Shown here: positions 7,273 through 56,283 of the stretch, in pieces
Position numbering within the stretch: position 1 is the first letter of the stretch
Layout: the number at the start of each line of letters is the position of its first letter
IMG/VR virus record: IMGVR_UViG_3300036784_000146
Location: 1-64,000 of that record
DNA from: a virus
Taxonomy: Duplodnaviria > Caudoviricetes
Strand: one strand, 5' to 3'
Length of the DNA stretch: 64,000 bases
The notes under the pieces: generated by a model
Database searches by the model: none
Told to the model about the DNA's origin: nothing
Seen by the model: the letters and a program-made list of their open reading frames with translations, nothing else
Made by a program: the position numbers and the translations under genes

Positions 7273-10215
7273 ATGACTAGCCCGTTGCCCCGTTTCAACC
7301 TCACCTTCAACCTCGCGCGCGCGGTCAATATCGTCGACGGCGTCCAGGTTGCCCAGACCATCGAGATCGCGATCACCCCGCTGGCCACTCCCAGCACTCC
7401 GGGTTCGGACCTCACGCTGGTCGGTGGGACCCAGGAACAGACCGTCCTGCTCAACAACACCACCAACACCGCCGTCTTCGCGATAGTGCCGTCCAACGCA
7501 CCGGGGCTGACCGAGCCGATGAACTACCTGTGCGCGATGCGCCAGGGCGGGGTGACCGGCGCGATCAACGAGACCACGTTCTCGATGCCCAACCAGGACA
7601 CCGCCTGGGAAGATCTCGGGAACCTGGGTGACTTGATCAGCGGTACCATCTTCCTAGCCTGGACCGACTTGGGTGTGGCCGGGCGGGTGGCCAAGCTCAA
7701 CGACTCTGGGATCCCGGTCGACTCCAACGGCGATCCCGTCGCGATGCCCACCGACGTCTCCACAGTCAACGACGCTCTGGTCTCCGAGACCGAAGCCCGT
7801 ATCGCCGGGGACGCTTCGGTTACCTCCGCGATGACGTCGGCGATTACTACTCAGGCCGCCACCACGCTGAGTTCAGCTAAGAGCTACACCGACACGCAGG
7901 TCGAGACGCTCAATGCGTCGATCGGCAACGAGGCGGGGGCCCGGGCGAACGCGATCACCGCGCTGACGAACACGCTGACCGCCGACGACACCGCCCTGCA
8001 GGGCCAGATCACCACCAACACCAACGCGATCACCGCGATCGACACCACGCTTACCCACAAGGCCGATCTCGACTCCAACGGCTACGTGCCGGTCAACCAG
8101 ACCAACCCGGCGGTGATCACCAGCTGGATCCCGGTGGCCAACCAAGCCGCCATGCTGGCGCTGACCTATCCGACGCAGGTGCAGGTCGGCGACGTCGCCT
8201 ACACCGCGACCGCGATGTATGTGCTGCTGACCACCGACCCGACGCAGCTGGCCAACTGGCGCAACATCACCCCGGTCGACAGCGTCAATGGCAAGACCGG
8301 CGTGGTGGCCCTCACCGCCGCCGACGTGGGGGCTGTCGATGCTTCCACTGGTACGGTCTCGATCTCTCAAGTCACCGGTCTGTCGACCGCGCTGACCGGC
8401 AAAGCCGCCCAGTCCGACATGGCGGCCGCGCAGGCCGCGATTGCTGCCATCCAGAACGACACCACCTACGTGCACACCGCCAGCGGAGTGATCGCCGACT
8501 CGGTGATGCCCGTCGACGCGGCGTTCATCAACTCCTCCAACAACCTGACCAAGAAGGACGGCACGGTCATCCCGATCGGGTCGCTGTCCGGGGTGTCCAG
8601 CGTCAATGGCAACACCGGCGTCGTCACGATCACCCCGGCCAACATCGGGGCCCTAGCCACCAACGGCACCATTACCGAGTCCCAGGTCACCGGACTATCC
8701 ACCGACCTGGCCAACAGGCTGCTGACCACAGACGCCAGCGTGACTAACGCGCGTACCCCAACTGCGCACGCGGCCAGCCACGCCTCCGGTGGCTCCGACG
8801 CGGTTACCCTCAGCGTGGGGCAGATTACCGGCCTGTCGACGACGCTGGCGGGCAAGGCCGCCCAGTCGGACATGGTCACCGCGCAGTCCAATATCGCCAG
8901 CCTGCAGAGCACCGTGACTGCCAAGGCCGACCTGACCGGTCCGGGCAACACGGTCCCGGTGGGCGAGATCCCGACGTTCACCGGCTCGGCCAAGCTCAGC
9001 GACTGGGGCACCAAGGCAGACCTGGTCTCGGGCACCGTCCCGCTGAGCCAGACGTCCCAAGTTATCCCACAGGGCTATATCTCGGGGCTGAACACCACGC
9101 TGGCGGGCAAGGCCGACCTGAGTGGGCCCGGGGGCACCGTCAACCCCGCCCAGCTGCCGACGAGCGCGCTGAGCGCCACCTTCGAGGTCGGCAGCCAGGC
9201 CGCCATGTTGGCTCTGGCCGCCCATCAGGGCGACATCTGCGTCATCACTACCGGCGCCAACGTCGGCACCTACCGGCTGGCGACCACCGACCCTACTCAG
9301 CTGGCCAACTGGATTCTGCTGCAGTTCCCCAGCTCGGTCACCTCGGTCAACACCCACACCGGTGCAGTGACACTGACGGCCGCCGACGTCGGCGCGGTGG
9401 ATGCCTCCACCGGCACGGTCAGTATCTCTCAGGTGACCGGCCTGTCCACCCAGCTCGGTTTGCTCGCCACCACGTCGGCGCTCAACAGCGCGGTGGCTGG
9501 ATTGACCACACCGGCCCAGGTGCAGACACAGCTGGCGTCGTCGACACCCAACAAGCAGACCGCCAACTACGTCGCGACGAGCGCCATCGCCAGCCTCGCC
9601 GGTCAGCAGTCGGTCGACGGTGTGCTCACCCCGATCGGCTCGGTCGTGCTCGCGACAGCGCAGCCCAGCTCGGTCAACAACGGCCTGTGGTTGGTCAACT
9701 CCGGGGCCTGGACGCGCACCTCCGACTTCACCACGGGGTCCTGGTTGGTGAAGGGCACCTACGTGGTGGTCACCCAGGGCACCACCAAAGCCGAGACGCT
9801 GTGGCAGAATACCGCGACCAGCGGCGTCATCGACACCAACGTCAACAACTGGTCCATGGTCGGCAGCCTGGGCTCGGCGCTGAACTACACCGCCATCAAC
9901 GGCGTGAAGCTGACCGGCACCCAGTTCGCCGGTCAGGCCGTCGCCGGTGGCGGCGTGCAGGTGGCTTCCGGCGGCTTCTCGATCGATCCGGCGGTGGGCG
10001 TGCGCAAGGCCGTCGGCACCGTGCCGTCCACCGGCTCGACGATCGTGCAGATCACCCACAACCTCAACAACCTGGCGCCCTGGCCCGTTATCGTCGACAC
10101 TGCGTCGGGCAACATCGTCGACTTGGGCTGCACGGTGATCAACGCCAACATCGTCTCGTGCGAGTTCGCGAGTCCGCCCGCGTCCGGCCAGTACCGCTAC
10201 ATGATCGTGGGGTGA
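7273..10215 (+). CDS. Long fibre / minor structural protein with internal repeats
   Basis: Repeated SVNGxTGxVxLTAADVGA, ISQVTGLSTxLxGKA and KADL motifs; the TTDPTQLANW...DASTGTVSISQVTGLST block occurs twice (~8230 and ~9283). Confidence 0.85.
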   Translation: MTSPLPRFNLTFNLARAVNIVDGVQVAQTIEIAITPLATPSTPGSDLTLVGGTQEQTVLLNNTTNTAVFAIVPSNAPGLTEPMNYLCAMRQGGVTGAINETTFSMPNQDTAWEDLGNLGDLISGTIFLAWTDLGVAGRVAKLNDSGIPVDSNGDPVAMPTDVSTVNDALVSETEARIAGDASVTSAMTSAITTQAATTLSSAKSYTDTQVETLNASIGNEAGARANAITALTNTLTADDTALQGQITTNTNAITAIDTTLTHKADLDSNGYVPVNQTNPAVITSWIPVANQAAMLALTYPTQVQVGDVAYTATAMYVLLTTDPTQLANWRNITPVDSVNGKTGVVALTAADVGAVDASTGTVSISQVTGLSTALTGKAAQSDMAAAQAAIAAIQNDTTYVHTASGVIADSVMPVDAAFINSSNNLTKKDGTVIPIGSLSGVSSVNGNTGVVTITPANIGALATNGTITESQVTGLSTDLANRLLTTDASVTNARTPTAHAASHASGGSDAVTLSVGQITGLSTTLAGKAAQSDMVTAQSNIASLQSTVTAKADLTGPGNTVPVGEIPTFTGSAKLSDWGTKADLVSGTVPLSQTSQVIPQGYISGLNTTLAGKADLSGPGGTVNPAQLPTSALSATFEVGSQAAMLALAAHQGDICVITTGANVGTYRLATTDPTQLANWILLQFPSSVTSVNTHTGAVTLTAADVGAVDASTGTVSISQVTGLSTQLGLLATTSALNSAVAGLTTPAQVQTQLASSTPNKQTANYVATSAIASLAGQQSVDGVLTPIGSVVLATAQPSSVNNGLWLVNSGAWTRTSDFTTGSWLVKGTYVVVTQGTTKAETLWQNTATSGVIDTNVNNWSMVGSLGSALNYTAINGVKLTGTQFAGQAVAGGGVQVASGGFSIDPAVGVRKAVGTVPSTGSTIVQITHNLNNLAPWPVIVDTASGNIVDLGCTVINANIVSCEFASPPASGQYRYMIVG

Positions 10216-11600
10216 CCGTGAGACGAGTCGCCTTACGCACCACGCTCGGCACCCCGCTGATCCACTATGCCGACAGCGCCGGGGGCAACATCCGGCCGGA
10301 GATGAATATCCGACACCAGACCAACAAGTTCAACGAACGGGCGCTGCGAGCGCGCCAGCAGGGCGACCATTCGCTGGCCGATTACTTCGAGCAGCTGCGC
10401 GACCATATGCTCAGCGAGGCCGAGCAGGGCCGTCCCCGGCCGTTCAGCCACTACCTGCCGCAGGTTCAGGAGGAGTATGGCGACCACATCGCGAGGCGAA
10501 CAGCCAGCGTGGTGCTCTACACCAAGCCGGGCTGCGTCCAGTGCGATGCCACCCACCGGCACCTCACCAGGAGCGGCGTGCCTTTCGAGTCGGTGGACGT
10601 CACCCAGAGTCCGCAGGCCTTAGAGCACGCCCGGTCGTTGGGTTACAGCTCGGCCCCGGTGGTGATCACCCAGAACGACCATTGGTCCGGCTACCGGCCC
10701 GACAAGCTCAACACGCTGAAGACGGCGGCCGAGTGGACCGACGAGGACCGCGAGCGCGACCTGCATCGACTGATGGAGAAGTCTCACGAGGAGCGCCAAC
10801 AGCGTTTCAACAATCCGACCAAGATCTACCGTGGCCTGAAGCTGGATCTGCCGTCCGAGCTGGAAGAGCACATCAAGGCGAACAGCCGGATGCCGATGGA
10901 GCCTGAGGAGGTTGGCCAGCACCTCAGCATCGGTCCCAAACTGCTGGATCACCTACAGACCGCCCATCCGCTGCGGACCAACGAGTATGTCCCCGAGCCG
11001 GACATCGGACTGGGACGGCACTGGACCACCAACAAGCGCTTCGCCGACATCGCCGCGATGCAGGGTGGCCCCTACGGCTCACGCCATAGCGTCGTGCTGG
11101 AAGCCGATTTCCCTGGCCACGAGCACGTCGACCCCGAGCACCCTTACGTCGGTGGCAGCTGGCAGGACATGTCCGGTAACCCGATGGTCCCTTGGAAAGA
11201 GGAAGAGGAGTACACCCTCAAACCCGGCACCCCGTTGAATATCACCGGCGTGAACCTCAACGGCAACGAGGTGCTGCACGACCCGCACTACGAGAAGTCG
11301 ATGCCGCAGGATTACGGCATCCCTTACAACGGTGGGCCGCAGATCCGGCAGGCCGGTCGGCCCTATACCGACGAAGAGCGCGAGTTGCACAAGCAGCAAG
11401 GCTGGCGCGGTCCGCCGTGCGAGGACCCCAGCCATCAGGGCCAGCTTATGGGCCGCTGCGCAGAATGTGGGCGTCGGGTAGCTCCCGAGCAGCGCGCCGC
11501 TTATATCGACGAAGCCCCTTGGTACAACATGGCCTGGGACGACGACCTCGACGACGACGACGAGCCGGTGCTGCCACCCAAGGAGCACCATGGTCGCTAA
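10212..11600 (+). CDS. Multidomain protein: unknown domain, NrdH glutaredoxin, ADP-ribosyltransferase-like domain, small Cys domain
   Basis: GTGA-coupled start at 10212; YTKPGCVQC...APVV...WSGYRPDK is NrdH; KIYRG / HWTT / EEEEY is an ART-like catalytic pattern. Confidence 0.8.
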   Translation: MTVRRVALRTTLGTPLIHYADSAGGNIRPEMNIRHQTNKFNERALRARQQGDHSLADYFEQLRDHMLSEAEQGRPRPFSHYLPQVQEEYGDHIARRTASVVLYTKPGCVQCDATHRHLTRSGVPFESVDVTQSPQALEHARSLGYSSAPVVITQNDHWSGYRPDKLNTLKTAAEWTDEDRERDLHRLMEKSHEERQQRFNNPTKIYRGLKLDLPSELEEHIKANSRMPMEPEEVGQHLSIGPKLLDHLQTAHPLRTNEYVPEPDIGLGRHWTTNKRFADIAAMQGGPYGSRHSVVLEADFPGHEHVDPEHPYVGGSWQDMSGNPMVPWKEEEEYTLKPGTPLNITGVNLNGNEVLHDPHYEKSMPQDYGIPYNGGPQIRQAGRPYTDEERELHKQQGWRGPPCEDPSHQGQLMGRCAECGRRVAPEQRAAYIDEAPWYNMAWDDDLDDDDEPVLPPKEHHGR

Positions 11601-12891: not shown

Positions 12892-12911
12892 AAGGGTGAG
12901 GAGGTGATGGA

Positions 12912-13703: not shown

Positions 13704-13718
13704 GGGGAGGGCAGAACT

Positions 13719-14983: not shown

Positions 14984-14997
14984 CAGGGAAGTATACG

Positions 14998-15282: not shown

Positions 15283-15851
15283 ACGGAGTTCCCGCCAGTC
15301 ATTTCACCTACCTCTGGCAAAACTTGGCCTACCCTCGGTTGGGGCTGGCCTACAACTGGGGCGGATCGCTGGATCCCAACGACCCAGGGGCGGGCACCGA
15401 CTGCTCGGGCTGGGTCAGCGCGGCGCTCTCGGCGCTGGTGCGTGGACCAGCTATGGAGTACTCCCGGCAATTCTGGACCGGCACCTTCGCGGGTATCACC
15501 CCAGGTCAGACCGGTCCCATCCAGGGAGTGGCCGACACCGCCAATCTGGTGTGCGTTTCTAGTCCAGCTGACGTGCCGCCGGACGCGGCGATGATCATCG
15601 CGATCCTGCAAACCGGCTCGGATCCCACCTATGCCGCTAACGCCCACATGATCTGCTCGGTGCGCGGCACGGTGCTGGAAATGGGCGGCGGCCCCAACGA
15701 TCTCCACACCGGCGGCGAGCCTGGCAGCACCGAGATCAACGACCCCGAGTTCAACCAGTTCCTCTACCTGCCCGGCCCGGTGATCCTCGACGCACCGGAC
15801 TGGACGGCTCCCTCCACGCTGGCCGCCATCGCGGGAGCCTTCGCTGCGTGA
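15279..15851 (+). CDS. NlpC/P60-like peptidoglycan peptidase (lysin A peptidase module)
   Basis: YNWGG...TDCSG catalytic Cys motif, AHM catalytic His, LEMGG. Confidence 0.8.
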   Translation: MNGVPASHFTYLWQNLAYPRLGLAYNWGGSLDPNDPGAGTDCSGWVSAALSALVRGPAMEYSRQFWTGTFAGITPGQTGPIQGVADTANLVCVSSPADVPPDAAMIIAILQTGSDPTYAANAHMICSVRGTVLEMGGGPNDLHTGGEPGSTEINDPEFNQFLYLPGPVILDAPDWTAPSTLAAIAGAFAA

Positions 15852-16456
15852 GGATCCTGAGGCAGGCCGAGATGTTCGGGTATCGGACGGGGATCGCCCT
15901 GGACGACCCGAATCTCACCGCGCCCACCAAGCTCTACCGTGGCGTGGCCGTCATGGGCGTGCCGCCCGAGCAGCAGCAGCGATGGAACGATGCGCTCGAC
16001 TACAGCAATTGGGACGGCGACAAGGCCAGCCTGGGTAAGCACCTGCAGGTCGGTCCCGAGCTGATCAAGCATTTGCAGGAGCGCCAAGGCGGTGTCGGTC
16101 GGCACTGGACCACCAACCCGGCCCGGGCCTACGACTTCGCCGGACGCAGCATGGAGAACCGCAACCTCGACAACCCCGACACCCATGCGGGCTTCCCGGC
16201 GGTGTTGGAGATGAACTGGGACGGCACGGGCCTGGACATGAGCGACAGGGGCATGAACAGCGGCAGCCACAACTTCGACGTCGACGACGAGCGTGTCCTA
16301 CAGCAGGGCCATCCGGTTAACATCAGCGGCGTCAAGGTCGCCGAGCCCGACCTGGGCGGCTGGACCGACGTGCTCAACCCGTCGCCGGAGGATCGCAGCT
16401 TCGACGACTTCAAGCACCTACACCAACCCAACTACGGACACCCGGGGGTGATATGA
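15848..16456 (+). CDS. ADP-ribosyltransferase-like protein with MRILRQAE leader
   Basis: KLYRG / GRHWTTN / DDERVL pattern; clear paralogue of the domain in 10212-11600. Confidence 0.65.
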   Translation: MRILRQAEMFGYRTGIALDDPNLTAPTKLYRGVAVMGVPPEQQQRWNDALDYSNWDGDKASLGKHLQVGPELIKHLQERQGGVGRHWTTNPARAYDFAGRSMENRNLDNPDTHAGFPAVLEMNWDGTGLDMSDRGMNSGSHNFDVDDERVLQQGHPVNISGVKVAEPDLGGWTDVLNPSPEDRSFDDFKHLHQPNYGHPGVI

Positions 16457-17679: not shown

Positions 17680-17682
17680 CGG

Positions 17683-17838: not shown

Positions 17839-17895
17839 TCCTTCGACCTGTAGCGGAAGCCTTCTCGACCTGTCTAGGGTGAGGAGGCTTCTGCT

Positions 17896-19418: not shown

Positions 19419-19419
19419 G

Positions 19420-20519: not shown

Positions 20520-20541
20520 CCACCGAAAGGGAGACACAACC

Positions 20542-37770: not shown

Positions 37771-38463
37771 ATGCAATTCACCGGCTCATTGGCCCGTGAG
37801 GCCGATCTGACCAACCGGCGGCTGGCGCAAGAGGCCCAGAAATTCCGTGAGGGCCGTGACGACTGGTTCGACGGCACCCCGGCATCGACCGACCGGCGCA
37901 TCTCAGCCTGCCAGCGTGTGCTTCACAGCGCCCGCAGCGCGCGGGCCCGCAGCCCCTTCGACTGGGAACCCCAGCAGATCATCGCCGAGCTGGAAGAGGA
38001 CCTGCGCGCCTTGGTCGGCCAGCGCGAGGACCTGCTCAGCGGTTACCAGGATCGCAAGGCCGCGTTGCCCTGGGGGAAGTCCGACGAGGAGCGAGAGGAG
38101 GAAAAACGCCAGCGCGAACACTGGCGGCAAGAAGACGGCCAAAGGGTGCGCCGTGGCTTGGAGCAGGCTTACGGTCGTCCCCGGGCGGCAGCCATCGACG
38201 ACGACGAGCTGCGCTGGGCTCACCTGGAAGCGCCCAAGTTCCTGCGCGCCAATCTCGACGTCGTCCACTATCGTGACGAGCTGGCCACTCGTGCCCAGCA
38301 CTGGGCGCAGAAGATGGCTTCCGGATTCGATCATCCAGCTGAGACCACCCGGGTCTTCGTGGGCGCGGTCGTCGAAGCAGCCCGCGCGGTGCCTTTCCAG
38401 CCGCCGATGCAGGTAGCTCATACGATTGACTTCGATCTCGACCCTGCGGCGATGTGGCTGTGA
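37771..38463 (+). CDS. Head-associated/scaffold-like hypothetical protein
   Basis: Late-type motif upstream; WFDGTP.S.DRR; REA/RKAA/RAAA motifs. Confidence 0.55.
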   Translation: MQFTGSLAREADLTNRRLAQEAQKFREGRDDWFDGTPASTDRRISACQRVLHSARSARARSPFDWEPQQIIAELEEDLRALVGQREDLLSGYQDRKAALPWGKSDEEREEEKRQREHWRQEDGQRVRRGLEQAYGRPRAAAIDDDELRWAHLEAPKFLRANLDVVHYRDELATRAQHWAQKMASGFDHPAETTRVFVGAVVEAARAVPFQPPMQVAHTIDFDLDPAAMWL

Positions 38464-39799: not shown

Positions 39800-39800
39800 C

Positions 39801-41378: not shown

Positions 41379-44077
41379 TTGGCTGACGGAAGCAGGGTCG
41401 CAATGTCCGGTGGTTGTTTTGAAGTTTTGGCCGCATCGGAGGACGAGCAGAAGCTCGCCCAACAGCAAGCAGGTGACAGGCTTGCCGCCGCCGTCTATGA
41501 CGTGCGCCAGGAGTTTGGTGACTTCCTGTTCAAGGCCGCCAACATCCAGGAGTTCCGCACCCGGGTGGCACTGGTCAAGGACGACATGATGAAAGTCGTC
41601 GATCGCCACCTTCCGCCGGTGTCCGGCGTGATGGGCCGCATCGCGGTGCGCCGGGGCTCGATCCTGGAACGCCAGTTCAAGGCCTTCAAGAAGGGCGCCC
41701 CGTTCGCCGACTATGACAACTTCGCCGACTGCACTTCCAAGAACAGCGACAAGGACAACCCCGACGCCTACTGCGGGGAGATCAAGCACCGTACCGAGGA
41801 CAAGACAAGCGCCCGGCGGCTGGAAGCGACCCACAGCATCGTCGCCGACGACCCGCACTTGGGCTGGTTCGCGGTCGCCGACGCCACCTCCGGCGCCGGT
41901 GAGTACGTGAACGACATGGAGGGCCAGCTGTCCGGCGGGTCGGCGATGCCTCCCTCTCCTCTCACGTCAGGTGATCCCACCGGCGGCATGCTGGGCGACA
42001 CGGTGGTCCCAGGCAACATCCCAGGCAATCCCGGGATCGAGGGGGACAAGCCCACGATGCCCGGCGGCCTGAAGAGCTGGGGCCGTCGACGGCACTGGGC
42101 CACCGGCGAGGGCGGTGCGTTGTCCACTGACGAGACCTATCACCCTGAGTCCGGCGCGCTGATCCCTGAGGGCGACTGGCACGGCTTCCAGGACAGTGTC
42201 GACCAGGGTGCGGAGTCCAAGGTCGACGACGCGTTCGCCTCCGGCGAGCACGACAAGCACTACGACGGCGACCCGTCGAACACCGACTTCGTCAGCGGCC
42301 ACGAGGCGGCCTGGGTCGGCCCAGACCAGCACAGCTACGTGGGCAAGCCGAAGGGTCAAGATGCTGAAGACTGGGGAAACTGGGAAGAGCACCTGAAGTC
42401 CCGAAGTGCCGATCCTCGCAATCGCGAACACCCTTTGGTGCAAGACGCCAGGGACTCTCACGACCGGGCCATTGGGGCCCGGCGACGTCAAGCGGTGGAC
42501 GACGACAACAACGGCATCTACAACGTCATGCAGGGGCAGGGCTTCGGTCCCGAGCACGAGACCGGTGGGTTCGACGAAGCGTTCCCCTCCAAGATGGGCG
42601 CTCTGACTCTGCGCTACCTGTCGTTTTGCCATCGCAACAACCTGGCGCCGACGCTGGCCAGCCTGGAACGCCACGGCAAGAGGCTTGATCCTGGCGAGTA
42701 CTTAGCGCTCGCCAACGGGCTGGACAAGCTGGCCCGGCTGCCTCGGTCCGAGAAGGTCAAGGTGGCCCGGCTGGTGGACTGGACGCTGCGCCAGGCCGAG
42801 ACCTACCACGGCGAGGGCGACGTCGAGGACAAGTCGGGTCCTTTCGCTGGTCCGCACGGCTCCTTCCCGGTCGGCACCGAGAGCGACCTGAGTGGCGCCA
42901 AGGACGTGTGCAATATGCCTTCGGTGCACGGCAAGCACCCGGGCACGTGCGACCGCATCGAGCACATGCAGAAACCGGCTGCCCGACGGCGTCGAGCTGC
43001 ACCGGACTATCTGATGAAGGCCAAGGACGCGCTGGAAGGCCTGCTCAATCAGAAGGCCGAGGAGTTCCAGACTGGCGTGGCCCCGCTGCAGCAGGCGCTG
43101 CAGGTGGTCCAGCAGTCTCAGGCCATCGAGCAGGCCAACAACCCGCTTAGTGTCCAGCCCCCGGCGGGCACCGTAAACGTCTTGCCCGATCCTCCACAGG
43201 GTATGCCCGGCGCTCCGGCGGCTGGCGGCGGCGCTCCGGCGGACCAGAACGCTCCCCCTCCGGCAGCCGACGCAGCTGGTCTGTCAGGGATGCCTCCTGA
43301 CCCCACCCAGCAGATGGCGGCGAGCCGGAGGCGTGGTGGTCACCCAAAAGGCCGGGTCCCCGCGTAGGGGACGTCGTCAAGGACTACCAGAGCTGGCTGA
43401 ACCGGCGCCCGGACAACCGGGGCGGTTCGGATCTCGAAGAGTTCGCCGTCGAGCATCCCATCGGTGACCGTGCCAAGCGCACCCTGCAGGAGCAGATGTA
43501 CGGCCAGCCGTCGCAGACCACGGCGGCCTACCAGGCGGCCTGCAAGGTATTCGGCAAGCAGGCCGTCGACGCCAGTCGTCGCGGCCGCACCGCGTCTCGC
43601 AAGCAGGCCTGGATGGGCTGGGGCCCTGCCCAGCTCGACCATCACCCCCGGGTGGCCGGATGGGACTGGGATCCGCACCTTGAGGCCTACACGGCCAGGA
43701 CACCCGGCCGGTTCGCCTGCTCGTGCGGCAATCAGATGGACATGCCCGGCCATCACGAGTGCAAGTGCGGGCGGCTGTACAACGGCTACGTGATCGGTAC
43801 CGGCGGATCCAACCACGAGGCCAGCGCCGAGAAGTATCTGGTGCGTGAGATCACCGTGCGCCCCGACGTCATCGTGGCCAACAAACAAGCGGCGCCGTCC
43901 GGCTACTACGGCAGCCCCGCTTACGATCCCGACGACCCCGACGCCGACTTCCCGTCAGACCACCACCCGTCCGTCGGCCGTCAGCCAGCAACCCCGGACG
44001 ACTGGGCGCACCGCAACGAGAAGAACGATTGGACGTCTCATCCGTTGCCCCGGCGTAAGAGGCGCCAGCCAGCTTGA
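41379..44077 (+). CDS. Large head-associated protein (662 aa to 43367) with predicted -1 frameshift extension to 44077 (~899 aa)
   Basis: Slippery C-CCA-AAA at 43343-43349; -1 frame open and coding-like from there to 44077. Confidence 0.75.
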
Positions 44078-44340: not shown

Positions 44341-44372
44341 TTAAAGGCGGGAGTTTTGCCGGGCGGTTTTGC

Positions 44373-44732
44373 ATGATTGGCACGGTGTGCCAAGGCTGCA
44401 AGCAGCTCGCCGAGATCGCCCACACCGATAGCCTCGGCCTCGGCTACTGCGCTCGGTGCGCCAAGGACATCCCAATCCAAAGCGAGACACTGGGTTTGGA
44501 GTACCTGATAGCCAACCCCCCGTTCTTCCCCGGCGATCGAGTAGAGTGCCGGACCGGCGGAGAGATTTTCGACGGAGTCGGAACCGTCCAGGAGATGAGT
44601 TTCGATTTCGAGCACGGGGGAACTTTGATCTATCCTGCCTTCCGCGTGACCATCGACGAACCTGCCAACGAGCACAGTCCGGTCGAAGGCTGGTGGACCG
44701 AGGTCTGCTTGAAGAAGGTGGGTAAGCCATGA
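44373..44732 (+). CDS. Hypothetical protein (Zn finger plus SH3-like)
   Basis: Two CxxC pairs; FFPGDRVEC. Confidence 0.65.
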   Translation: MIGTVCQGCKQLAEIAHTDSLGLGYCARCAKDIPIQSETLGLEYLIANPPFFPGDRVECRTGGEIFDGVGTVQEMSFDFEHGGTLIYPAFRVTIDEPANEHSPVEGWWTEVCLKKVGKP

Positions 44733-47305
44733 CGGCGCCGGGCGGGCGGTTCTGGACCGGCAACCCCGATGCCGAGATGCGCCGTCTGCGGGCGGCCGGG
44801 GCCACGCTCCCCAACTCCGCGCCGAGGGCCCGGCTGGAAGCCAAACGCTTCGGCGATCAGATACGCAGCGGCTCCCTGGTGGACAACACCAACCGGATGA
44901 TGGGTGCCGACTTCCGGCGCCGCCGGGCCTCAGGCCTGCGTACCGGTGCCAACGTCCAGATGGCGATGCCCAAGTTCCGCACCCCGCTGGGCTCCCTGGA
45001 AGACAAGAACGTCCCGTTCAACGTCGAGGACCGCAAGGAGCTGCAGGAATGCCGCCGGTGGGCGCGGGCCTTCTATATCACCCACGACCTGGTCCCGCTG
45101 CTGATCGACATCTACGCGCGCTTCCCGCTGGTTGGCTTGGAGTTCAAGAGCACCGACCCGCTGATCGAGAAGTTCTACACCCAGATGTTCCTCAACGACC
45201 TGGACTACGAGAACTTCCTGCCCGACAGCCTGGGCCGCGAGTACTACGTCGCCGGTGAGGTCACCACGCTGGCTCATTTCAACGAGTCGCTGGGCATCTG
45301 GTCGTCGGAGGAGGTCCTCAACCCCGACTTCGTGCGGGTGTCCAAGGGCCTGTTCGTCGAGGAGGAACGTGTCCAGCTGATGGTCAAGGACCTCGTCGAC
45401 GGCCTACGCGACGGGCCGCAGGGGATGGGCCCCGACGAGGAGACCCGCAGCGAGCGCGAGGAGCGCCTCTACGAGTACCGCATGCTGGTGCAGAACTACC
45501 CCGAGATCATCCGCGCCGCCCAGATGGAAGACGGCCTGGACATCAGCCCGGCCAAGTGGAGCCGCATCGTCAACAAGAGCGCCCCGTGGCATGAGTACGG
45601 CACGCCGCCGCTGTTGCGCAGCTTCCGCACCCTGATGATGGAGGAGTCCCTCAACGCTGCTCAGGACGCCGTGGCGGACCGTTTGTACTCCCCGATGATC
45701 GTGGCCACCCTGGGCCTGGAAAACATGGGCGACGGGCTGCCCTGGATCCCGATGCAGTCCGACCTCGACGACCTGCGCGACGACATGCAGAACGCGTTCA
45801 TGGCCGACTTCAAGCTCGTCTGCCACCACATGGGCCTCAACGTGGAGAACGTCTTCGGCCGCGAGTCGGTCCCCCGATTCGATCAGGACTACGAGCGCAT
45901 CGACCTCAAGCTGATGCAGGCCTGGGGCATCGGCTCGGCACTGATCATGGGCGGCACCGGCGCGGCCGGTACCTACGCCAGCTCGGCACTGAACCGCGAG
46001 GTGTGCGAGCTGCTGATGAAGAGCTACCAGAAGAAGGTCATCCGCCACATCGTGAAGCGGATGGAAGTCATTGCCGAGGCCCAGCAGCACTACGCCTACG
46101 AGAAGAAGGGCGGCTACCGGCGGCCCCTCTACAAGGAGGTCGTGCAGTTCAACGAGGAGACCGGCGAGGAAGAGATCGTCCGCGTTCCGCAGCTGCTGAT
46201 TCCCAAGGTTGAGTTCGCCTCGCTCAACTTGCGCGACGAGACCCAAGAGCGTTCGTTCATGATGGAACTCAAGCAGGCCGGGGTGCCGATCAGCGACAAG
46301 AGCTTGGCGATCAACATCCCGATCGATTTCGAGCAAGAGCTGCCTCGCGGCGCCGACGAGACGGTCGACAAGCTGGTGGCCCAGGCCGAGGCGATGGGCA
46401 AGGCCCAGTCGATTATCGACCACAAGGACCTGCCGTACCCCGCCGAGCTGGCCCAGTACCTGACTCAGACCCTGATCCTGCGCCAGCAGCTGGCCCAGAC
46501 CAAGATGATGGAGGGCCAGGAGGAGATGCAGGAGACCGCCCAGCAGCAGCAGACTCCCGCCGGTGCGATGGGTGCACTGCCCGGCGTCCCGCCAGCTCCC
46601 CCGCCGCAGCCTGAGGGCGGCGAAGGCGAGGATGGCCAGTTGCCGCCTCCGGGCCCGATGCCCGTCCCGATGCTGCCCGGCGACGGCGGTCCGCCCATGG
46701 GCCCCGGTGGTCCGATGCCCATGCCGCCCCAGATGGCCTCTCCGGAGATGCAGACCGAGATGGGGCTGGTGGCCGCCAAGGGGCAGAAGCGCACGCCCTT
46801 CCAGGTCAATGCCCCACATGCCGGTGGCCCCGGAATCCTGCCGCCCGACATGGAGTTCGGCAACGAGAACGAGTTCGGAGGCGGACAGCCTTCCGAGGTC
46901 GTCGAGCCCCCGCGCAACCGCACTCGTCCCGAGGAGAGCGACGAGATGCGGGCCAACTCCCCGCGCAAGGCCACCCGGGTGGGCCGTAGCGGGATCCGCA
47001 AGAAGGCCGAGTTCGAGATGGACCCCAGCTCCTACGGCCACCGCAACCGGGTCAGCGAGAGCGCGGTGGAGAAGGCCGTCCGGCGCCGGGAGGCCCAGGC
47101 CAACCCGCCCCGGGTCGACGAGCTGATCCAGGACCCCAAGTTCTACGCCCTTACCGGCATCGGCGGTTACCAGGCCCAGATCCAAGGCGACTTCCCGCAC
47201 ATCATGGCCGGTGACGACGACGACAGCACCAAGGAGTCGATCCAGATTCTTGAGGACGCGTTACTGCAGTACGAGCGGCAAACAGGAGTGAGGCCGATAT
47301 GGTGA
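44729..47305 (+). CDS. Portal protein
   Basis: IDIYARFP, GEV, EEVLNPD, YGTPPLLR, AQDAVADRLYSP, YASSALN; position at the head of the capsid module; long Pro-rich C-terminus. Confidence 0.85.
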   Translation: MTAPGGRFWTGNPDAEMRRLRAAGATLPNSAPRARLEAKRFGDQIRSGSLVDNTNRMMGADFRRRRASGLRTGANVQMAMPKFRTPLGSLEDKNVPFNVEDRKELQECRRWARAFYITHDLVPLLIDIYARFPLVGLEFKSTDPLIEKFYTQMFLNDLDYENFLPDSLGREYYVAGEVTTLAHFNESLGIWSSEEVLNPDFVRVSKGLFVEEERVQLMVKDLVDGLRDGPQGMGPDEETRSEREERLYEYRMLVQNYPEIIRAAQMEDGLDISPAKWSRIVNKSAPWHEYGTPPLLRSFRTLMMEESLNAAQDAVADRLYSPMIVATLGLENMGDGLPWIPMQSDLDDLRDDMQNAFMADFKLVCHHMGLNVENVFGRESVPRFDQDYERIDLKLMQAWGIGSALIMGGTGAAGTYASSALNREVCELLMKSYQKKVIRHIVKRMEVIAEAQQHYAYEKKGGYRRPLYKEVVQFNEETGEEEIVRVPQLLIPKVEFASLNLRDETQERSFMMELKQAGVPISDKSLAINIPIDFEQELPRGADETVDKLVAQAEAMGKAQSIIDHKDLPYPAELAQYLTQTLILRQQLAQTKMMEGQEEMQETAQQQQTPAGAMGALPGVPPAPPPQPEGGEGEDGQLPPPGPMPVPMLPGDGGPPMGPGGPMPMPPQMASPEMQTEMGLVAAKGQKRTPFQVNAPHAGGPGILPPDMEFGNENEFGGGQPSEVVEPPRNRTRPEESDEMRANSPRKATRVGRSGIRKKAEFEMDPSSYGHRNRVSESAVEKAVRRREAQANPPRVDELIQDPKFYALTGIGGYQAQIQGDFPHIMAGDDDDSTKESIQILEDALLQYERQTGVRPIW

Positions 47306-48179
47306 TGGGCAGGTTGACCAACATCGTGCACGCCACCCTGGACATGGGCGAGTTGATAGGCTTCCTTATCCGGGGTCCGGGGCTCTCTCCCTCCTTCAAC
47401 GGGGAGCAGGCGTTGGTTGGGGGTGATCCCGAGCCGAACACCAACGGCCACGAGTTACCGGCGCCCCCCGTTGTTCCGCAGCCGATCGAGCAATGGGGGT
47501 TGCGGTTGCCGAACGGCAACATCGTCTGGGAGAACTGCCTCTATCAAGGGCTGCCGATTCGGGAGCCGGACCAGCGCCAGGTCTTGGTAAACGTCCTGCG
47601 CCGTACGGCGGCCGACCTCGATTTTGACGAGGGCACCTTCCTGGGCCACTATGGCTGGGCCCGGCGCTTCGGCATCCCGGCGGTGCAATGGGGGGATATC
47701 ACCGTGCACCCCTTGACAATTGAAAACAGTGGTTCCGACACGCCCAGGGCGAACGGTATGTTAGAGGGTCCCGGCGTGTCGGAAATTGGTTCACCGAATA
47801 GGTAAATTTTCAGGTAAGGTGTGACGGTATCCCATGGCAACGATTAGGTGGGGAACGTCGCCCGAACAAGGGAAAGTGATTGTCTGACATGAAGTCTGAC
47901 TCCGAGAATGCTGTCGATGTCTACTATCTGACGCTGCCAGTGGCTAGTTCGGACCAAGCCAGAAGTTTGGCCAACTACCTGAACGCCCATGGGGTGGAAG
48001 CGGTTCCGGACGGCAACGACGGCGTCACGTGCCCAGTGGCCAAGGACGAGACGGTTAGCGACATCCGCCAGTTGCAGAAGTCGTGGTACAAATTCTGGGA
48101 ACACTCCGATGCCGAAGTTTTCGGACTGTCCGTCTACGTCAAGCCTGCCGGGGTAACCTGCAGCCATGAGTCTCCCTGA
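47305..48179 (+). CDS. Two hypothetical genes (47305-47805, 47880-48179)
   Basis: Operon orientation. Confidence 0.6.
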
Positions 48180-48807
48180 CATCGAAGCCAATATCGAGGC
48201 TGCCATGGATTGGGCTCGATCGGTCAACGGCCAGCCCTACTTCAAGACCGCCGACGCCGAAGAGGCCAAGCAGTCCGGCGGCATGATCGCGCTTTACCCA
48301 CGCACCGACTTCGCTCAGATGTTGGCCGTGCCCGGCGGGGAGCCCGAAGACGACCTGCACCTGACCTTGGTCTTCCTGGGCGATGACGTCAGCACTCTGG
48401 ACCCCGCGAACCTAGGCGCGATCGTCGGCCGGGTCGCCGATTCCTACACCGAGATCACCGCGCGCGTCTTCGGTCACGCCGTGCTCAACCCCGACGGCGC
48501 CGAGGGCCGTGACCCCTGTGGTGTTTACCTGGTAGGTCATTCCCCCGAACTGAGCCAGATCCATGATGACGTGCGCGAGGCCGCCGAGATGGGTGCTCAG
48601 ATCCCCGAGCAGCACGATCCCTGGCTGCCTCACATCACCGCCGGATACGCCTCTCAGATGGGCGAAAGCACCCAGGTACGGGAGTACACCGGAGAGGTGA
48701 TTTTCGATCGTCTGGGGCTCGCTGTGGCCGGGGAAACGCAGTTCTATCCCTTCCATGGTGCCTCGATTGCGGCCGCATATACCTCTCTTGCGCACTGGCC
48801 CCTGTAG
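48166..48807 (+). CDS. 2H phosphoesterase (2'-5' RNA ligase / Acb1-like fold)
   Basis: Two HxT motifs: LHLTLVFLG and PHITAGY. Confidence 0.88.
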   Translation: MSLPDIEANIEAAMDWARSVNGQPYFKTADAEEAKQSGGMIALYPRTDFAQMLAVPGGEPEDDLHLTLVFLGDDVSTLDPANLGAIVGRVADSYTEITARVFGHAVLNPDGAEGRDPCGVYLVGHSPELSQIHDDVREAAEMGAQIPEQHDPWLPHITAGYASQMGESTQVREYTGEVIFDRLGLAVAGETQFYPFHGASIAAAYTSLAHWPL

Positions 48808-48847
48808 ATAGCGGTCTTCCGCCCTAGGAAAGGGTAGGAGGACTGCG

Positions 48848-51800: not shown

Positions 51801-52924
51801 TCTCCAACGAGACCAGCTCGATGCAGCCGATGGAGCCCAACGTTGGTGGCGGGGGGCCGGGCGACGTCAACAACGCGCCTCCCATCATGAACGCTGGGGA
51901 CAACGTCTCGGGCGCTGAAGAGGACCCCACCGGCACGCTGGCCAGTCTGCTGCACTTCGCCGACGACGATGACCTCACTAGCGGTGACACCATGGGCGAT
52001 CCCGGCGGCGGCATGACCGATGGTGGCGGCAACTCGATGGGGATGGGTGGCGGCGACTCGATGGGTGGTGGTGGCGACTGGATGGGCACCCCTAGCGGTG
52101 GCCTCCACTATCCGGGTCTCGACACCGACTCGGGCGGCGTCAGGTTTGGACCTATGTCCCCGGATTCTTCTACCCCTTCGGCCACTCCGGGCCTTCCCGG
52201 TGGAGCCGGTGCCAGTGACTTCGTGCATCCGTCCGGTCCGGTCGGTGCCCCGGGCGACATGATCCATCCGGATAAGAGCGTGACTTACGCCAATCAGCAG
52301 CGTCCTTCGATCCGAGACAGCATCGCGAAGCGCAACCAGCACTGGCGGCACGGCTACGACTGGTCGAACGTGCCTCCCGGCTGGGGTGACGTCCCCAGCA
52401 ACCCCGACGACGACAGCGATCCGCTGCCCCCGTTGCCGGGCCAGAAAGAAGTCGAGAACCTGCTGCCCAACCAGATGCCCAAGATCCCCGGCATGGGTAA
52501 GGGCGGCCCCGGCGGTGCCGGTGGTGCAGCTGGCGAGGCCGGGATGGCCGAGGAGTTGCCGTTGGTGGCGGCCTCCATCGACCCGCGTTGGGACCAGTCC
52601 GACGTGGTGGCCCAATTCCAGCGGTCAGCCGGGGCGGCAGCCCTGCGTGGACGCGGCCAAGGTGGCCCGCCTCAATCCGACCCGCGCGCGCAGGCGATGT
52701 CCCAGTGGGGCGGGGCGCCGGGCGGCGTCACCCGCGCCGGTAGCCGTGGCAACTTCTCCGAGGGCGACATCGCCGGGGCGGCAGCTAGCTTCCTACACCG
52801 CACCGCCGGACGCACCTATTCACCGGCCGAGCAGGCCAGTCTGATGAACGAGGAGCCGGTCAACGGCCGGGGTGCGCGCAACCTCGGTGGTCTCGATCTC
52901 CAAGGGACCCACTACGTCCAATGA
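48848..52924 (+). CDS. Large acidic head-associated protein with SWIM-type Zn finger
   Basis: WHCGCDW...FCSH; many (R/K/H)xA-delimited segments; between portal and protease. Confidence 0.75.
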   Translation: MTMIHTAHGVGEVVETVTERGGRVSYKVKVGLNEVWVKAADARFAEGGPENLFSYQFTPDRHIDPTAEMYGASTPEKDFVVGNVFAMGSKGFSPMAPAKSVRDIKRPYPYDPTPQYPVDMFTDSTIQPGEYEIDPDKRLKPSQPSTQPPSPGPSPSLFATGAYSAIQDRPEIVLGSRPGSDEDYLIHEGFFAEAEELTDEQRGKRREDYPRQSRDPAADRPRLREHDEPVLPFDKVSPSGHTTHEMGKKSEPDWYSCPDCGAWHNPFRHMKNRRGPKPPRSDDAFQPAYKGASMRCAACEHDHQEHGMGYHEGEGEFENYQPPWERSAEGRHRAPPNEVDPFIDTLDRGALPELVRDPGNDQQVFMKRTPTPKPRGEHFAPGIMDRLRGRAAGVFDGIEFPTDMPEKFAYIPGPEDFTDSAQTALAAITRQAAILEGEYGLSPRVAVEMDLVEHDAHVREAAWRDVQRKAKRLRAEGRVHIKDSSPEHIVATVDGDTGTYDTIIVRGNVFDLGGQSVTSWHCGCDWGRWAFKRRLTYVGRFCSHAYATYQEMRSAHDLPGGTRSRTRSAGSHEFADPTDEADARLQYEQSGARPVAPGSDAYLHAPRPAGPPIPGWVGQSVEGGEPGRHRAAGVVEDYKKWLKENDQVPGVDSVADFVTLPQDDDEEAPLTEDEVAKLYDYAEGNLPESRERNYDVGYTFDPDEVYKTSREMLRTKPQSLTPDLQFVPEGEDEHLVDVTKDDRKTTGPGQIMHGNTDDEGGQEPGDGEIVHFASLQRLCDTEGLPYPVELTAFLQHYAEEQKVNNPTPGSPANPRPDAGEATRDLNKLRNLIQDPLSDSFGHMDERNDKVRDLVEELHDAGTAAENLVASRQFEAEGDFASPGGGTWADLPFAGSGPDPKDWYSSSADYVDEHERPNFTDVTDLPDGDILKYNDSDSPVSKPKEARYEHEGEEEDYGDEGPLEAPSDAPWGEKNPRWSPRHADLFSNETSSMQPMEPNVGGGGPGDVNNAPPIMNAGDNVSGAEEDPTGTLASLLHFADDDDLTSGDTMGDPGGGMTDGGGNSMGMGGGDSMGGGGDWMGTPSGGLHYPGLDTDSGGVRFGPMSPDSSTPSATPGLPGGAGASDFVHPSGPVGAPGDMIHPDKSVTYANQQRPSIRDSIAKRNQHWRHGYDWSNVPPGWGDVPSNPDDDSDPLPPLPGQKEVENLLPNQMPKIPGMGKGGPGGAGGAAGEAGMAEELPLVAASIDPRWDQSDVVAQFQRSAGAAALRGRGQGGPPQSDPRAQAMSQWGGAPGGVTRAGSRGNFSEGDIAGAAASFLHRTAGRTYSPAEQASLMNEEPVNGRGARNLGGLDLQGTHYVQ

Positions 52925-55900
52925 CTGTCGACCTGCGTGACCACGACGTAGAGCGCCGCTTCGTGCAAGCGCTCAAGCACAGCGGTGTTCCCGTCTCCAA
53001 CAAGGCCATGCCGTCGACCCGGCAGCTGCGCGCAACGTCGATTTTGGCCAACAGGCAGCACAAGGTTGTCGGGAAGATTGCGGCCGTCAAGACCAGCCGC
53101 AAGGCGGTCTACTCGATGGTGGAGCCCTTCGCCAAACACGGCACCGTCGTCAAGGACTTCGAGTTCGTTCCCGGGATGCTCTACACCAAGGTGCGGGCGA
53201 TCTCGGCGCGCATCAACCAGAACTACGACGCGTGGCCGTCTGGTCAGCTCAAGACCAGCTACCTCACCTTCTTGGGCAAGCCGATCTTCGTCAATCACGC
53301 CAACTTCGACCCCGATCGGGCACGGGGTCGGGTGGTGGCCGCGCGCTACATCGAGAACGGCCGGGACAAGTACGTCGAGACCGTGATGGAGGTCGACGCA
53401 CTCAACTTCCCCCGGCTGGCGGCCGAGATCCACAACGGCGGCCTGGACAGCGTGTCCATGGGCGTCGAGGCGGGCTTCACGATCTGCAGCTTCTGCGGCA
53501 ACAAGGCTACCGACGTGTTCGACATGTGCGACCACGTTAAGTTCCACAAGGGTAGTCACCTACCAGACCCACGCACCGGACAACCCAAGCTGGTGTACGA
53601 AGACTGTCACAAGCTAGGTTTCTTCGAGCTGAGCTACGTGTTCGACCCGGCCGACGAGACGGCGGTGGTCTCACAGGTAATCGTGGCCGACAAGCGTGTC
53701 GCCGACAACCAGTTCATCAAGCGCGAAGGTGCCCGGCCGATCGACCCCAGCCAGGAGGTCTTCGTCCACTACAACCGGCACGCCTTCAATCGGCAGAAGC
53801 GCACCGGCCAGCCTCAGGCCGACCTGTGGTCGATCCGCCAGGACGATCCGGAGACCAGAAAGCACGTGCGCGGTTACATCAACGACCTGCACTTGCGTGA
53901 TGCCCGCCTGCACGTCCAGCCCGGTGGCAGCCAGCTTTACAAGGACACCTACACCGATGATCGCGGCGAGGGTGATCGCACCGTGCACGCGGGCATCTAC
54001 GGGACGCTGGACAGCGGGCCTCCCCCGGAGGGCATGTCGATGTCGGTTCTGGGTTACAACCCCAAGACCGACTCCACCTTCGTCCACAAGGACACAGGAG
54101 AGCCCGTGCACGAGGCCGACCACATCCACGTCGACCCCGCTGGCAAGGTCTACGGCTACAAGGCCGACGGCTGGGGACGCACTGCACGCCGCAAGAAGGC
54201 CTGGGGTGAAACCGAAGCCCCCGAGGACATCGACACGCTGCGCGAGGACGACGACGACAGCGATGACGACTACGAGTTCGTCACCCCCTATCGACCCGAC
54301 GGTGCTGATGACATGCCGTTCGCGAACGAGATCGGCTCACCGCAGGAATTGCAAACCCCAGACTTCGACCAGACCAAGCGCCTCGACCGCGACCAAGAGG
54401 AAGAGGGCCTGGACTCCGACCGAAGGGTCGAGGACGTCGGAGAGGTCGGAGCCCCGTCCAACGGGACTCAAGCTCAGCCGAAAGCGGCAAGGAAACAAAG
54501 GAGGAAGGCGATGGCTCGCACCAAATACGCCGCTGAGGAGGACCGGGACGACGACCGTCTCCCCCCGTGGCTTCAGGATGACGACCAGGGTGGCGGCGAC
54601 GAAGGTGGCTTCCCCGACGATGGCGGCGATGGCGGTCCCCCGCCTCAGGGTCCGCCCGACGACGGCGGTGACTTCGGCGACGACGGCGGTGATGACCTCG
54701 AATCCCGCGTCGACCAGCTTGAGCAGGCTGTCGGCGAGCTGCAGGACGAGGTGGGCCCCGACGAAGACGACAGCATGGACGGGCCGCCTGCGCCCCCGCC
54801 GCCAGGTCCCCTTGGTCCTCCGCAGTTCGCCGCCCGTAACCGGCGTCAACAGCCTCGTCAGGCCACTCGGCGCACCGCCAAGGATGACGACGATTCGGAC
54901 GATGACGATGACGACGATTCGGACAAGGACGACAACAAGCCGCCGTGGCTCAAGGAGAAAGAATCTCGGCGTCGTACGCCCCAACGCCCTGTGAACGGGC
55001 GCTCCCCGCAAAAGAAGGGGAGAAAGGGCTCGCAGAAAGGAGCGCCGACCGTGGGAGCACCTCGTCTCTCTGAGCGCAGCAAGGTGGCCGCCTCTTCGCG
55101 TGCGCGCAACCGTCGCACCGCCGACGACAGCGGACACACCGACGGCGGCCCGTACGGCGAGAACACCCTCGGCGAGCAGGCCGAGACTTACATCCCGTCG
55201 GTGTACGGCGAGGGTGACGGCGTTCCGCCCGAAGAGCCCGTGGCCGCTCCGGCTGGCGACGAGTCCAAGGCGCCCAATAGCGAGAGCAACCTGGTGGCCA
55301 GGATCCACAAGCAGAAGGTGGCCTTGGAGCGTGACATCCAGACCTACATGCGGATGCAGGCCGGGCGTCGGACCGCTGAGGACTCCGGCGTGGTGCAGCC
55401 CACTACGGTCAACCCAGAGTTGAGCGGCACCGAGGACCAGTCCGTGCGCGGCGACGACTTCCAGGACGTCGGTCTGGATTACGGCAGCTCGGCCGAGACT
55501 CAGCCCAAGGACGCCAGTCGCCACTGGTTCGCTCAGTTCAACAACTGGTTGCGCCAGGTCACCGGCAAGAACTGGAACCAGCACACCTCCGGGCACCTGA
55601 CCCGGTATGCCGCCCATTGGGCGAAGGGGACCGGCGTTCCGCTGGATGCCATGTTCCCGACCCTGCAAACTGCGCTTCGCCAGGCGAAGAAGGGTGAGGC
55701 AAGGAGTAGTTCCATGAGACGTCGCGCCGAGGACGAGAAGCTGGAAGTAGCAGCTCCGGACGAGCGTGTCGACGTGGAGCGGCCGGTTTCCAACGAGACC
55801 GACGCGGACGCGCAAGCGTCACAGTTCGATCTGCACGATTTCGGCGACAATGCGGGGGATAACCTCGCCGATCCAGATATGGACGTCGACTCGCAGATCT

Positions 55901-56283
55901 GGGCTCCGGGCGAGGGAGAGGCAGCCGCCGGTAGCGGCGATCGCTCTGCCTCCCGGGTCAAGATGGCCGACGGTATGCAGGCGCTGCGGTGCGCCGAGGC
56001 ATACATCAGGTGCGGCCTGGTCCATCCCAGCCAGAAGTGGAAGGTCGGCAGCTGGCTGCAGACCATCCGGATGGCCACGGTGGTGGATCGTACGAAGCTC
56101 CTGGAAGCTGTCTACGCGGCTAACCAGCGGGCTTTCACCGCAGCGAGGCAACCCGCAGGAAACATGCGCGGGGCCACGACAGGCACTGTTCCTCCGGGCT
56201 TCGGCTCGGGACGGCGAGTTGCGTCAACCGCCCGAGAGAGTGCCTTGGACCCCAAGTTCGACGCGATGATGTGGCTCAGCTAA
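52921..56283 (+). CDS. Capsid maturation protease fused to inserted domain and scaffold
   Basis: NQNYDAW, FVNH, SVSMG, CSFC, FFELSYVFDPADETA; acidic low-complexity C-terminal half. Confidence 0.88.
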   Translation: MTVDLRDHDVERRFVQALKHSGVPVSNKAMPSTRQLRATSILANRQHKVVGKIAAVKTSRKAVYSMVEPFAKHGTVVKDFEFVPGMLYTKVRAISARINQNYDAWPSGQLKTSYLTFLGKPIFVNHANFDPDRARGRVVAARYIENGRDKYVETVMEVDALNFPRLAAEIHNGGLDSVSMGVEAGFTICSFCGNKATDVFDMCDHVKFHKGSHLPDPRTGQPKLVYEDCHKLGFFELSYVFDPADETAVVSQVIVADKRVADNQFIKREGARPIDPSQEVFVHYNRHAFNRQKRTGQPQADLWSIRQDDPETRKHVRGYINDLHLRDARLHVQPGGSQLYKDTYTDDRGEGDRTVHAGIYGTLDSGPPPEGMSMSVLGYNPKTDSTFVHKDTGEPVHEADHIHVDPAGKVYGYKADGWGRTARRKKAWGETEAPEDIDTLREDDDDSDDDYEFVTPYRPDGADDMPFANEIGSPQELQTPDFDQTKRLDRDQEEEGLDSDRRVEDVGEVGAPSNGTQAQPKAARKQRRKAMARTKYAAEEDRDDDRLPPWLQDDDQGGGDEGGFPDDGGDGGPPPQGPPDDGGDFGDDGGDDLESRVDQLEQAVGELQDEVGPDEDDSMDGPPAPPPPGPLGPPQFAARNRRQQPRQATRRTAKDDDDSDDDDDDDSDKDDNKPPWLKEKESRRRTPQRPVNGRSPQKKGRKGSQKGAPTVGAPRLSERSKVAASSRARNRRTADDSGHTDGGPYGENTLGEQAETYIPSVYGEGDGVPPEEPVAAPAGDESKAPNSESNLVARIHKQKVALERDIQTYMRMQAGRRTAEDSGVVQPTTVNPELSGTEDQSVRGDDFQDVGLDYGSSAETQPKDASRHWFAQFNNWLRQVTGKNWNQHTSGHLTRYAAHWAKGTGVPLDAMFPTLQTALRQAKKGEARSSSMRRRAEDEKLEVAAPDERVDVERPVSNETDADAQASQFDLHDFGDNAGDNLADPDMDVDSQIWAPGEGEAAAGSGDRSASRVKMADGMQALRCAEAYIRCGLVHPSQKWKVGSWLQTIRMATVVDRTKLLEAVYAANQRAFTAARQPAGNMRGATTGTVPPGFGSGRRVASTARESALDPKFDAMMWLS

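Follow-up and report, generated by a model that had tools for sequence, protein, structure and literature searches.

The window analysed here is the first 64 kb (64,000 nucleotides) of IMG/VR virus record IMGVR_UViG_3300036784_000146 (Duplodnaviria; Caudoviricetes), a single contig of 143,610 bp with about 64% G+C, and contains a head gene region in which a short [Arg/Lys/His]-x-Ala motif recurs. The DNA of this region is 70-74% identical to that of Mycobacterium phage Phrappuccino (cluster AA), cluster C myoviruses such as DrPhinkDaddy and Gordonia phages such as Pupper, and the order of its genes is the same as in these phages: a giant pre-portal gene, the portal, small genes, a 2H 'RNA ligase', the giant protein, a protease-scaffold polyprotein, the cement protein and the major capsid protein (Table 1). 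A preliminary description of the window had proposed that the prohead protease cuts several proteins at this motif into separate effectors that are ejected with the DNA, and all the motifs that it quoted were found in place (RRTAS 10494, LKTAAE 10716, FKTAD 48241, KRVAD 53692, GRTAR 54175 and RRRRMMA 17380). Its interpretation is partly supported, and [Arg/Lys/His]-x-Ala is probably the recognition motif of the prohead protease of this lineage.

Table 1. Features discussed in the text, with their positions in the window.
Feature	Position	Strand	Basis
Multi-module protein	10212..11600	+	Pfam/PHROG; gene between virion structural protein and minor tail proteins
Pre-portal head-module protein	41379..44077	+	ORF 41379-43367 plus -1 frame 43349-44077; 18 sites vs 11 expected in first part
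Portal protein	44729..47305	+	Synteny with annotated portals; alignment
2H phosphoesterase (Acb1/2'-5' RNA ligase-like)	48166..48807	+	Pfam/PHROG; alignment
Giant head-module protein, 1358 aa	48848..52924	+	31 [RKH]xA vs 15 expected
Protease-scaffold polyprotein, 1120 aa	52921..56283	+	30 [RKH]xA vs ~19 expected; PHROG, AF2, family of >400 proteins
Predicted prohead serine protease domain, residues 59-257	53095..53691	+	Structure match to T4 gp21, herpes assemblins; invariant columns
R-V-A, residues 259-261, release-site-like	53695..53703	+	Low-confidence five-residue linker 258-262 right after protease
Inserted L5 gp82-like domain, residues 263-418, candidate cargo	53707..54174	+	Pfam PF25735 E 7.5e-16; folded in AF2
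R-T-A and K-K-A, residues 420-427, closing insert	54178..54201	+	Directly before conserved WGETEAP block
Probable nested scaffold-only product from internal ATG (M531)	54511..56283	+	AAAGGAGGA upstream; conserved Met
R-V-A, residues 1099-1101, maturation-site-like	56215..56223	+	19 residues from C-terminus, before conserved tail
Cement protein	56323-56883		Pfam E 1e-51
Major capsid protein	56896..57909	+	N-terminal alignment with relatives

The motif was counted in the four proteins flagged as substrates, the products of the genes at 10212, 41379, 48848 and 52921, and expectation was taken from local shuffles inside 15-residue blocks, which keep composition; global shuffles were also run. Basic residues two places before Ala (offset +2) occur 89 times against 50.7 expected (z 6.65), whereas those at offsets +1 and +3 (39 and 59 occurrences) are not enriched. 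When every residue pair is scanned without bias at offsets 1-4, R-x-A comes first (53 vs 28.3, z 5.4), and F-A, K-x-A and R-T are also high, which fits R-[T/F]-A. When 160 open reading frames (ORFs) of the genome are ranked by the motif, all four flagged proteins lie inside the top six, and the [RKH]xA ratio is 1.70 in a set of eight head proteins against 1.11-1.15 in the rest of the genome; the enrichment over non-head proteins that the proposal predicts is present and is specific to the +2 spacing. With Ala counted as P1, Arg is often found at P4 and Thr, Val or Phe at P2, Pro is avoided at P2 and P1', and Ala and Ser are enriched at P1'. The earlier remark that acidic residues often follow the motif does not hold, as Asp and Glu at P1' are near expectation.

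The same excess is found in relatives. The three head-protein homologues of Phrappuccino, DrPhinkDaddy and Pupper all exhibit it at offset +2 (z 2.0-3.75), as do gp86 and gp91 of EmToTheThree (cluster C), the latter being a pre-portal homologue like the similarly enriched Phrappuccino gp44 and Pupper gp86. Among protease-scaffold homologues z lies above 0 in 60 of the 60 sampled (ratio 1.54), and among giant-protein homologues in 17 of 17 (ratio 1.70), with offset +1 depleted to 0.57. The giant-protein family keeps the density of the motif and conserves few of its positions, which is the behaviour of a short linear motif in disordered sequence. In the scaffold, 13 alignment columns outside the protease carry the motif in at least 60% of 60 sequences, the highest value among 243 grouped gapped pairs; this 60-sequence test was used in place of a column test on four sequences, which was dropped because conserved blocks dominate it and it is not discriminating. 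Arg- and Ala-rich proteins of high G+C could yield R-x-A by accident: the motif is short, composition alone predicts it about every 70 residues, and counts alone therefore prove nothing. However, composition as the cause of the excess was rejected by global shuffles and by local shuffles that keep composition, the offsets on either side of +2 are not enriched, and R-x-A tops all residue pairs. Furthermore, the excess is found in all 77 homologues tested and is absent from the portals and tail proteins of Phrappuccino, DrPhinkDaddy and Pupper, making an origin by chance very improbable.

The enzyme that would read the motif lies in the N-terminal part of the 52921 protein. An AlphaFold2 (AF2) model of this protein built on 60 homologues indicates that the gene encodes a prohead serine protease of the T4 gp21/herpes assemblin fold, and residues 102-255 match a PHROG family of head maturation proteases (E 1e-18). 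The best VIA-align match of model residues 59-256 is T4 gp21 (5jbl; Z 8.3, 128 aa, 3.4 A), followed by the assemblins of pseudorabies virus, herpes simplex virus 1 (HSV-1), Epstein-Barr virus (EBV), KSHV and human cytomegalovirus (HCMV) with Z 5.4-7.1. Foldseek with the whole 1120-residue model placed the same families on top at weak E values (0.015-0.05), and a comparison of the protease domain with PDB sequences gave no match. H126 and S179 are invariant in the 60 homologues and are the candidate catalytic His and Ser. C189, C192, C203 and H205 (53485-53535), invariant in the same set, are likely to form a zinc-binding insertion inside the protease domain. The same protease domain is present in the C-terminal half of a PHROG family labelled DNA methyltransferase (phrog_27806), and some protease-scaffold homologues (P0018, P0064 and P0124) possess intein/Hint and LAGLIDADG domains.

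The AF2 model of the polyprotein contains four confident folds. These are the protease (59-257), the L5 gp82-like insert at 263-418, and a pair of helical domains at 863-933 and 1012-1077; the remainder is mostly below 50 in the predicted local distance difference test (pLDDT). The protein comprises a protease, a long disordered or helical remainder and a conserved C-terminal tail, and its gene is placed immediately upstream of those for the cement and capsid proteins. Seven of its eight domain borders have a motif at most four residues away (expected 1.7, P ~1e-4). The insert in the protease gene is flanked by the motif as had been described, by KRVAD on one side and GRTAR on the other, about ten sites lie in the disordered scaffold, and the column of the R-V-A near the C-terminus carries the motif in 44 of 60 homologues and is conserved in a four-phage alignment. 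Low-confidence regions hold 17 sites against 10.1 expected (z 2.7). Disorder alone was rejected as the explanation of site placement, as these 17 of 30 sites compare with 46% of residues in such regions. The layout of the motif in the 52921 protein is the R-site/M-site arrangement of herpesviruses, and cleavage at the corresponding places is predicted.

An internal ATG at 54511 probably starts a nested scaffold-only product. The element AAAGGAGGA before this ATG is a strong ribosome-binding signal spelled with the rare codons AGG AGG AAG (54490-54513), and Phrappuccino gp53 has the same Shine-Dalgarno (SD) element and ATG. Further in-frame starts at 55051 and 55714 are also preceded by an SD element and fall at Met-conserved columns; at the three internal starts Met is conserved in 33/48, 38/43 and 54/59 homologues. 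These sequence features make nested, scaffold-only products of the UL26.5 or lambda Nu3 type likely, and cargo carried by the full-length protein would then stay at the lower copy number of the protease.

The design of protease followed by scaffold is common to more than 400 database proteins, and the junction between the two parts varies in length. The distance from the end of the protease (DPADETA...V-A) to the [WYF]-G-E-[TV]-E-A-P block ranges from 20 to about 780 residues in the family. Of 70 non-redundant members, 63 have a basic-x-[Ala/Gly] motif immediately before [WYF]GE and seven have L-Q-A or W-L-A at that place, so that P1 is always small. On the protease side, [RKH]xA lies about 10 residues past DPADETA in 45 of the 70. 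Members that lack an insert have a single site serving both positions, such as V-A-S-R-K-K-A followed by W-G-E, and the L5 gp82-like domain is missing from Phrappuccino gp53 and from insert-less relatives. The inserts of the family comprise L5 gp82-like, SLT, isochorismatase and ARB-07466-like domains plus unknown domains, and in the cases checked the sites lie 5-11 residues outside the Pfam domain limits. The earlier suggestion that new domains are added between cut sites is given direct comparative support, as inserts lie between two putative sites and insert-less relatives have one. Tentatively, the junction may be a general evolvable loading dock, at which any domain inserted between the duplicated sites would be carried into procapsids, cut free and delivered with the DNA. 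Under this reading, which is somewhat less likely than not, cargo would be loaded into every procapsid at the copy number of the protease, and the more than 400 actinobacterial phages might have swapped in at least five or six unrelated domain families, cell-wall enzymes included.

A motif can also be selected for reasons other than proteolysis, for instance as a capsid or DNA contact motif in disordered head proteins or because a modifying enzyme acts on it. A function cannot be read from enrichment alone, the phage has three ART-like paralogues, and some conserved copies lie in helices (R-Y-A, R-Q-A and R-C-A of the helical domains). However, the motif occupies the short linkers that flank variable inserts on either side and the places where folded domains end, nothing but Ala or Gly is accepted at P1 although P2 is free to vary, and its P3-x-P1 layout matches that of relatives of the same protease fold, so that a non-proteolytic role is improbable.

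The 2H protein provides a further border. Its domain was described as preceded by the motif, and the leader does end in K-T-A (48244-48252) right before the conserved D-A-E..G-G-M start of the domain. In four phages the leaders consist of 13-84 unrelated residues, ending in [KR]-x-A in three of the four, and free-standing or N-terminal 2H domains of other phages start at the same point. The 2H domain occurs inside PHROG families labelled head maturation protease, and the Zeta domain inside one labelled minor head protein, which fits head association; fusion of 2H to head proteins recurs in other phages. Portals share two N-terminal sites, here R-A-A (44789-44797) and R-R-A (44921-44929). The N-termini of capsid proteins in relatives share G-R-[FY]-A, and the G-x-E-R-F-G-A of the window (56938-56949) is, from this alignment, a possible short propeptide site.

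The multi-module protein encoded at 10212 consists, in order, of a leader, H-Y-A, a phrog_666 module (24-91), H-I-A/R-T-A, NrdH (99-172), K-T-A, an ART-like module (200-349), R-Q-A, a zinc ribbon, R-A-A and an acidic tail. The NrdH domain (residues 99/100-172; Pfam E 1e-11, PHROG E 6e-16) lies exactly between RRTA (95-98) and K-T-A (170-172), as had been stated. A site is found no more than four residues away from four of the six module limits (P 0.008), and with the borders of the protease-scaffold protein the predicted enrichment at domain borders is borne out. Modules of this protein occur free-standing elsewhere in PHROG, as a 65-residue phrog_666 protein and as NrdH, and cutting after Ala would give NrdH and 2H N-termini like those of free-standing homologues. 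The ART-like module matches in PHROG the N-terminal part of a 575-residue cluster C protein. This protein, gp86 of EmToTheThree (L004 8929-10656), comprises an ART-like module, a ParB/Srx-like segment and further parts, with K-M-A/R-A-A, R-Q-A and R-H-A/R-T-A at its apparent junctions. A head location of the 10212 protein is conjectured only from its place among virion genes, which by itself supports late expression and not head location. A likeness of its C-terminal tail to the WGETEAP-acidic block of the scaffold was considered and is not significant (E 25).

The phage encodes three paralogous ART-like modules (K-[IL]-Y-R-G ... G-R-H-W-T-T), at 10809-11258, at 15848-16456 and at genome position 65261-66226, one of which is fused behind NrdH while the other two carry a shared leader. 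This leader, M-[RQ]-[IV]-[LY]-[RS]-Q-[AR]-E-x-[FY]-x-Y-R, is common to four otherwise different proteins (14998, 15848, 16453 and genome position 65261): a small protein, the two ART-like proteins and a Zeta kinase (Pfam E 4e-17). From its sequence the leader is possibly a targeting peptide; only two of its four bearers have R-Q-A, and the flagged proteins are without the leader. Zeta and the ART-like proteins were rejected as motif-rich substrates, having no motif excess. R-M-M-A, the looser form said to follow the Zeta domain, departs from the motif, and with 3 copies against 5.3 expected the Zeta protein shows no enrichment.

About 75% of the giant 48848 protein is disordered; its folded parts are a SWIM-like core and two small helical regions, and Pfam found no families in it or in the 41379 protein. 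The R-T-A at 52799-52807 of the giant protein is shared by all 18 sequences compared, and relatives carry LysM in this protein. The earlier interpretation is supported in part, by the motif excess, the sites at borders, the insertion hot spot and the protease fold; its reading of effector polyproteins is weak for the 48848 protein, which is mostly disordered without a recognisable enzyme domain, and is unsupported for Zeta. The giant protein looks more like core or scaffold or ejection material than a chain of enzymes. In the 41379 gene, ORF 41379-43367 and ORF 43496-44077 are linked by the -1 frame, which has no stop between 43349 and 44077 (window 43343-44077). Both parts match phrog_2922, a 1237-residue family, which indicates a frameshifted or split pre-portal gene.

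These proteins bear on an alternative in which the sites only clear scaffold and core from the shell, inserts and fused modules are assembly helpers or passengers, and the NrdH fusion, Zeta and the ART-like proteins are not head cargo. The core-like or scaffold-like character of the giant protein, the position of most of the conserved sites in the scaffold and the lack of motif excess in Zeta and the ART-like proteins all agree with it, as does the hypothetical status of ejection. Nevertheless, the folded inserts flanked by sites, 15-80 kDa in size, repeatedly belong to cell-wall-active families (SLT, and LysM in the giant protein of relatives) that would be of use only at entry, the 2H domain is repeatedly fused to head proteins in other phages, and the NrdH fusion has its sites at the limits of complete free-standing modules. 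Scaffold clearance as the sole role of the sites is on balance unlikely.

In the proposed mechanism, protease, insert and scaffold would be synthesised as one polyprotein in the manner of herpesviruses, with one R-like site just after the protease, one or two closing the insert, a series in the disordered scaffold and an M-like one about 20 residues short of the C-terminus. Once the shell has assembled, the protease would release itself, cut up the scaffold and the giant head proteins, which are largely disordered, and shorten the capsid, portal and 2H proteins at their N-termini. A folded domain inserted at the R-site would be released and would stay in the head as cargo, because it is too big to escape from the shell like a peptide. 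The cut most likely falls after Ala, which is the natural reading since enzymes of this fold read a P3-x-P1 code. We infer cleavage, virion retention and delivery into the host, and it is somewhat less likely than not that the released domains are true delivered cargo.

Several observations weigh against recognition of the motif by the protease. Of the 30 copies in the 52921 protein, 13 lie inside folded or helical parts, and the giant protein has several in its SWIM-like core, so that not every copy can be a site. The motif is present in the bodies of the major capsid protein and portal too, and the weak genome-wide excess (ratio 1.11-1.15) is unexplained. The homologues share ancestry, which makes the replication not fully independent, the scissile bond is placed by analogy only, and literature searches on virion proteomics or cleavage sites of cluster C phages found no proteomic or biochemical datum for this phage group.

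That the prohead protease processes internal proteins is well known from T4 and phiKZ-like phages, and T4 packs enzymes in its head that are processed by the prohead protease. The T4 system of gp21 with gp22, IPI-III and Alt resembles the one described here in its protease, the best structural match (5jbl, Z 8.3), and in a short P3-x-P1 motif repeated in core proteins. However, T4 gp21 cuts after Glu (L/I-x-E), and T4 cargo carries an N-terminal targeting peptide and is encoded by separate genes, whereas here the domains are embedded in the protease-scaffold and giant proteins. In lambda C/Nu3, Mu I/Z and P2 gpO, protease and scaffold also share one reading frame with internal starts, giving a similar nested gene; the protease families differ, and these systems are not known to have inserted cargo domains.

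The likeness to herpesvirus UL26/UL26.5 extends to an N-terminal protease of the same fold fused in frame to the scaffold, a site right after the protease and another near the scaffold C-terminus (here as motifs only), and the probable use of an internal start for a nested product containing the scaffold alone. The cut sites of herpes proteases, YLQA-T and VQA-S, have Ala at P1 and the determinant at P3 (PMC4498786). The system in the window differs in belonging to a phage and in having cleavage predicted from sequence, a basic instead of a hydrophobic P3, many more sites and a variable foreign domain at the R-site. SPN3US gp245, like phiKZ gp175, cuts many head proteins at a three-residue motif, after A-x-E (PMC10052503), and abundant internal proteins of these phages are thought to enter the cell; the motif and phage lineage differ, and there the proof of cutting is mass-spectrometric while here cutting is predicted. 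Packaging of multi-domain effectors in phage heads has been proposed for 'polyvalent proteins' (Iyer et al. 2017, PMC5512222), in which unrelated effector-type domains are joined in one late or structural polypeptide, as are ART-like and NrdH here and ParB in cluster C gp86. The 10212 protein, in which phrog_666, NrdH, ART-like and zinc-ribbon modules are joined and whose gene has a virion structural gene on one side and minor tail genes on the other, is of this kind. Autoproteolysis by embedded metallopeptidase domains was proposed for polyvalent proteins, whereas the punctuation here matches the putative motif of the prohead protease itself.

The proposed basic-x-Ala code of this lineage, the herpes-like placing of the sites and the cargo hot spot where protease and scaffold join are new. 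If the motif is the cutting code, it would be the first rule for substrates of the head protease in the cluster C/AA lineage of mycobacteriophages and in many uncultured relatives, and virion proteomes would become predictable from sequence. It would also point to a natural site for loading foreign domains into capsids, open to testing in phages growing on M. smegmatis, and to a possible handle on what phages inject besides DNA.

Two small proteins of unknown function outside the head module, at 30751-31140 and 37771-38463, likewise have many copies of the motif (6 against 1.8 expected and 11 against 5.7); they could be additional substrates or a chance result.

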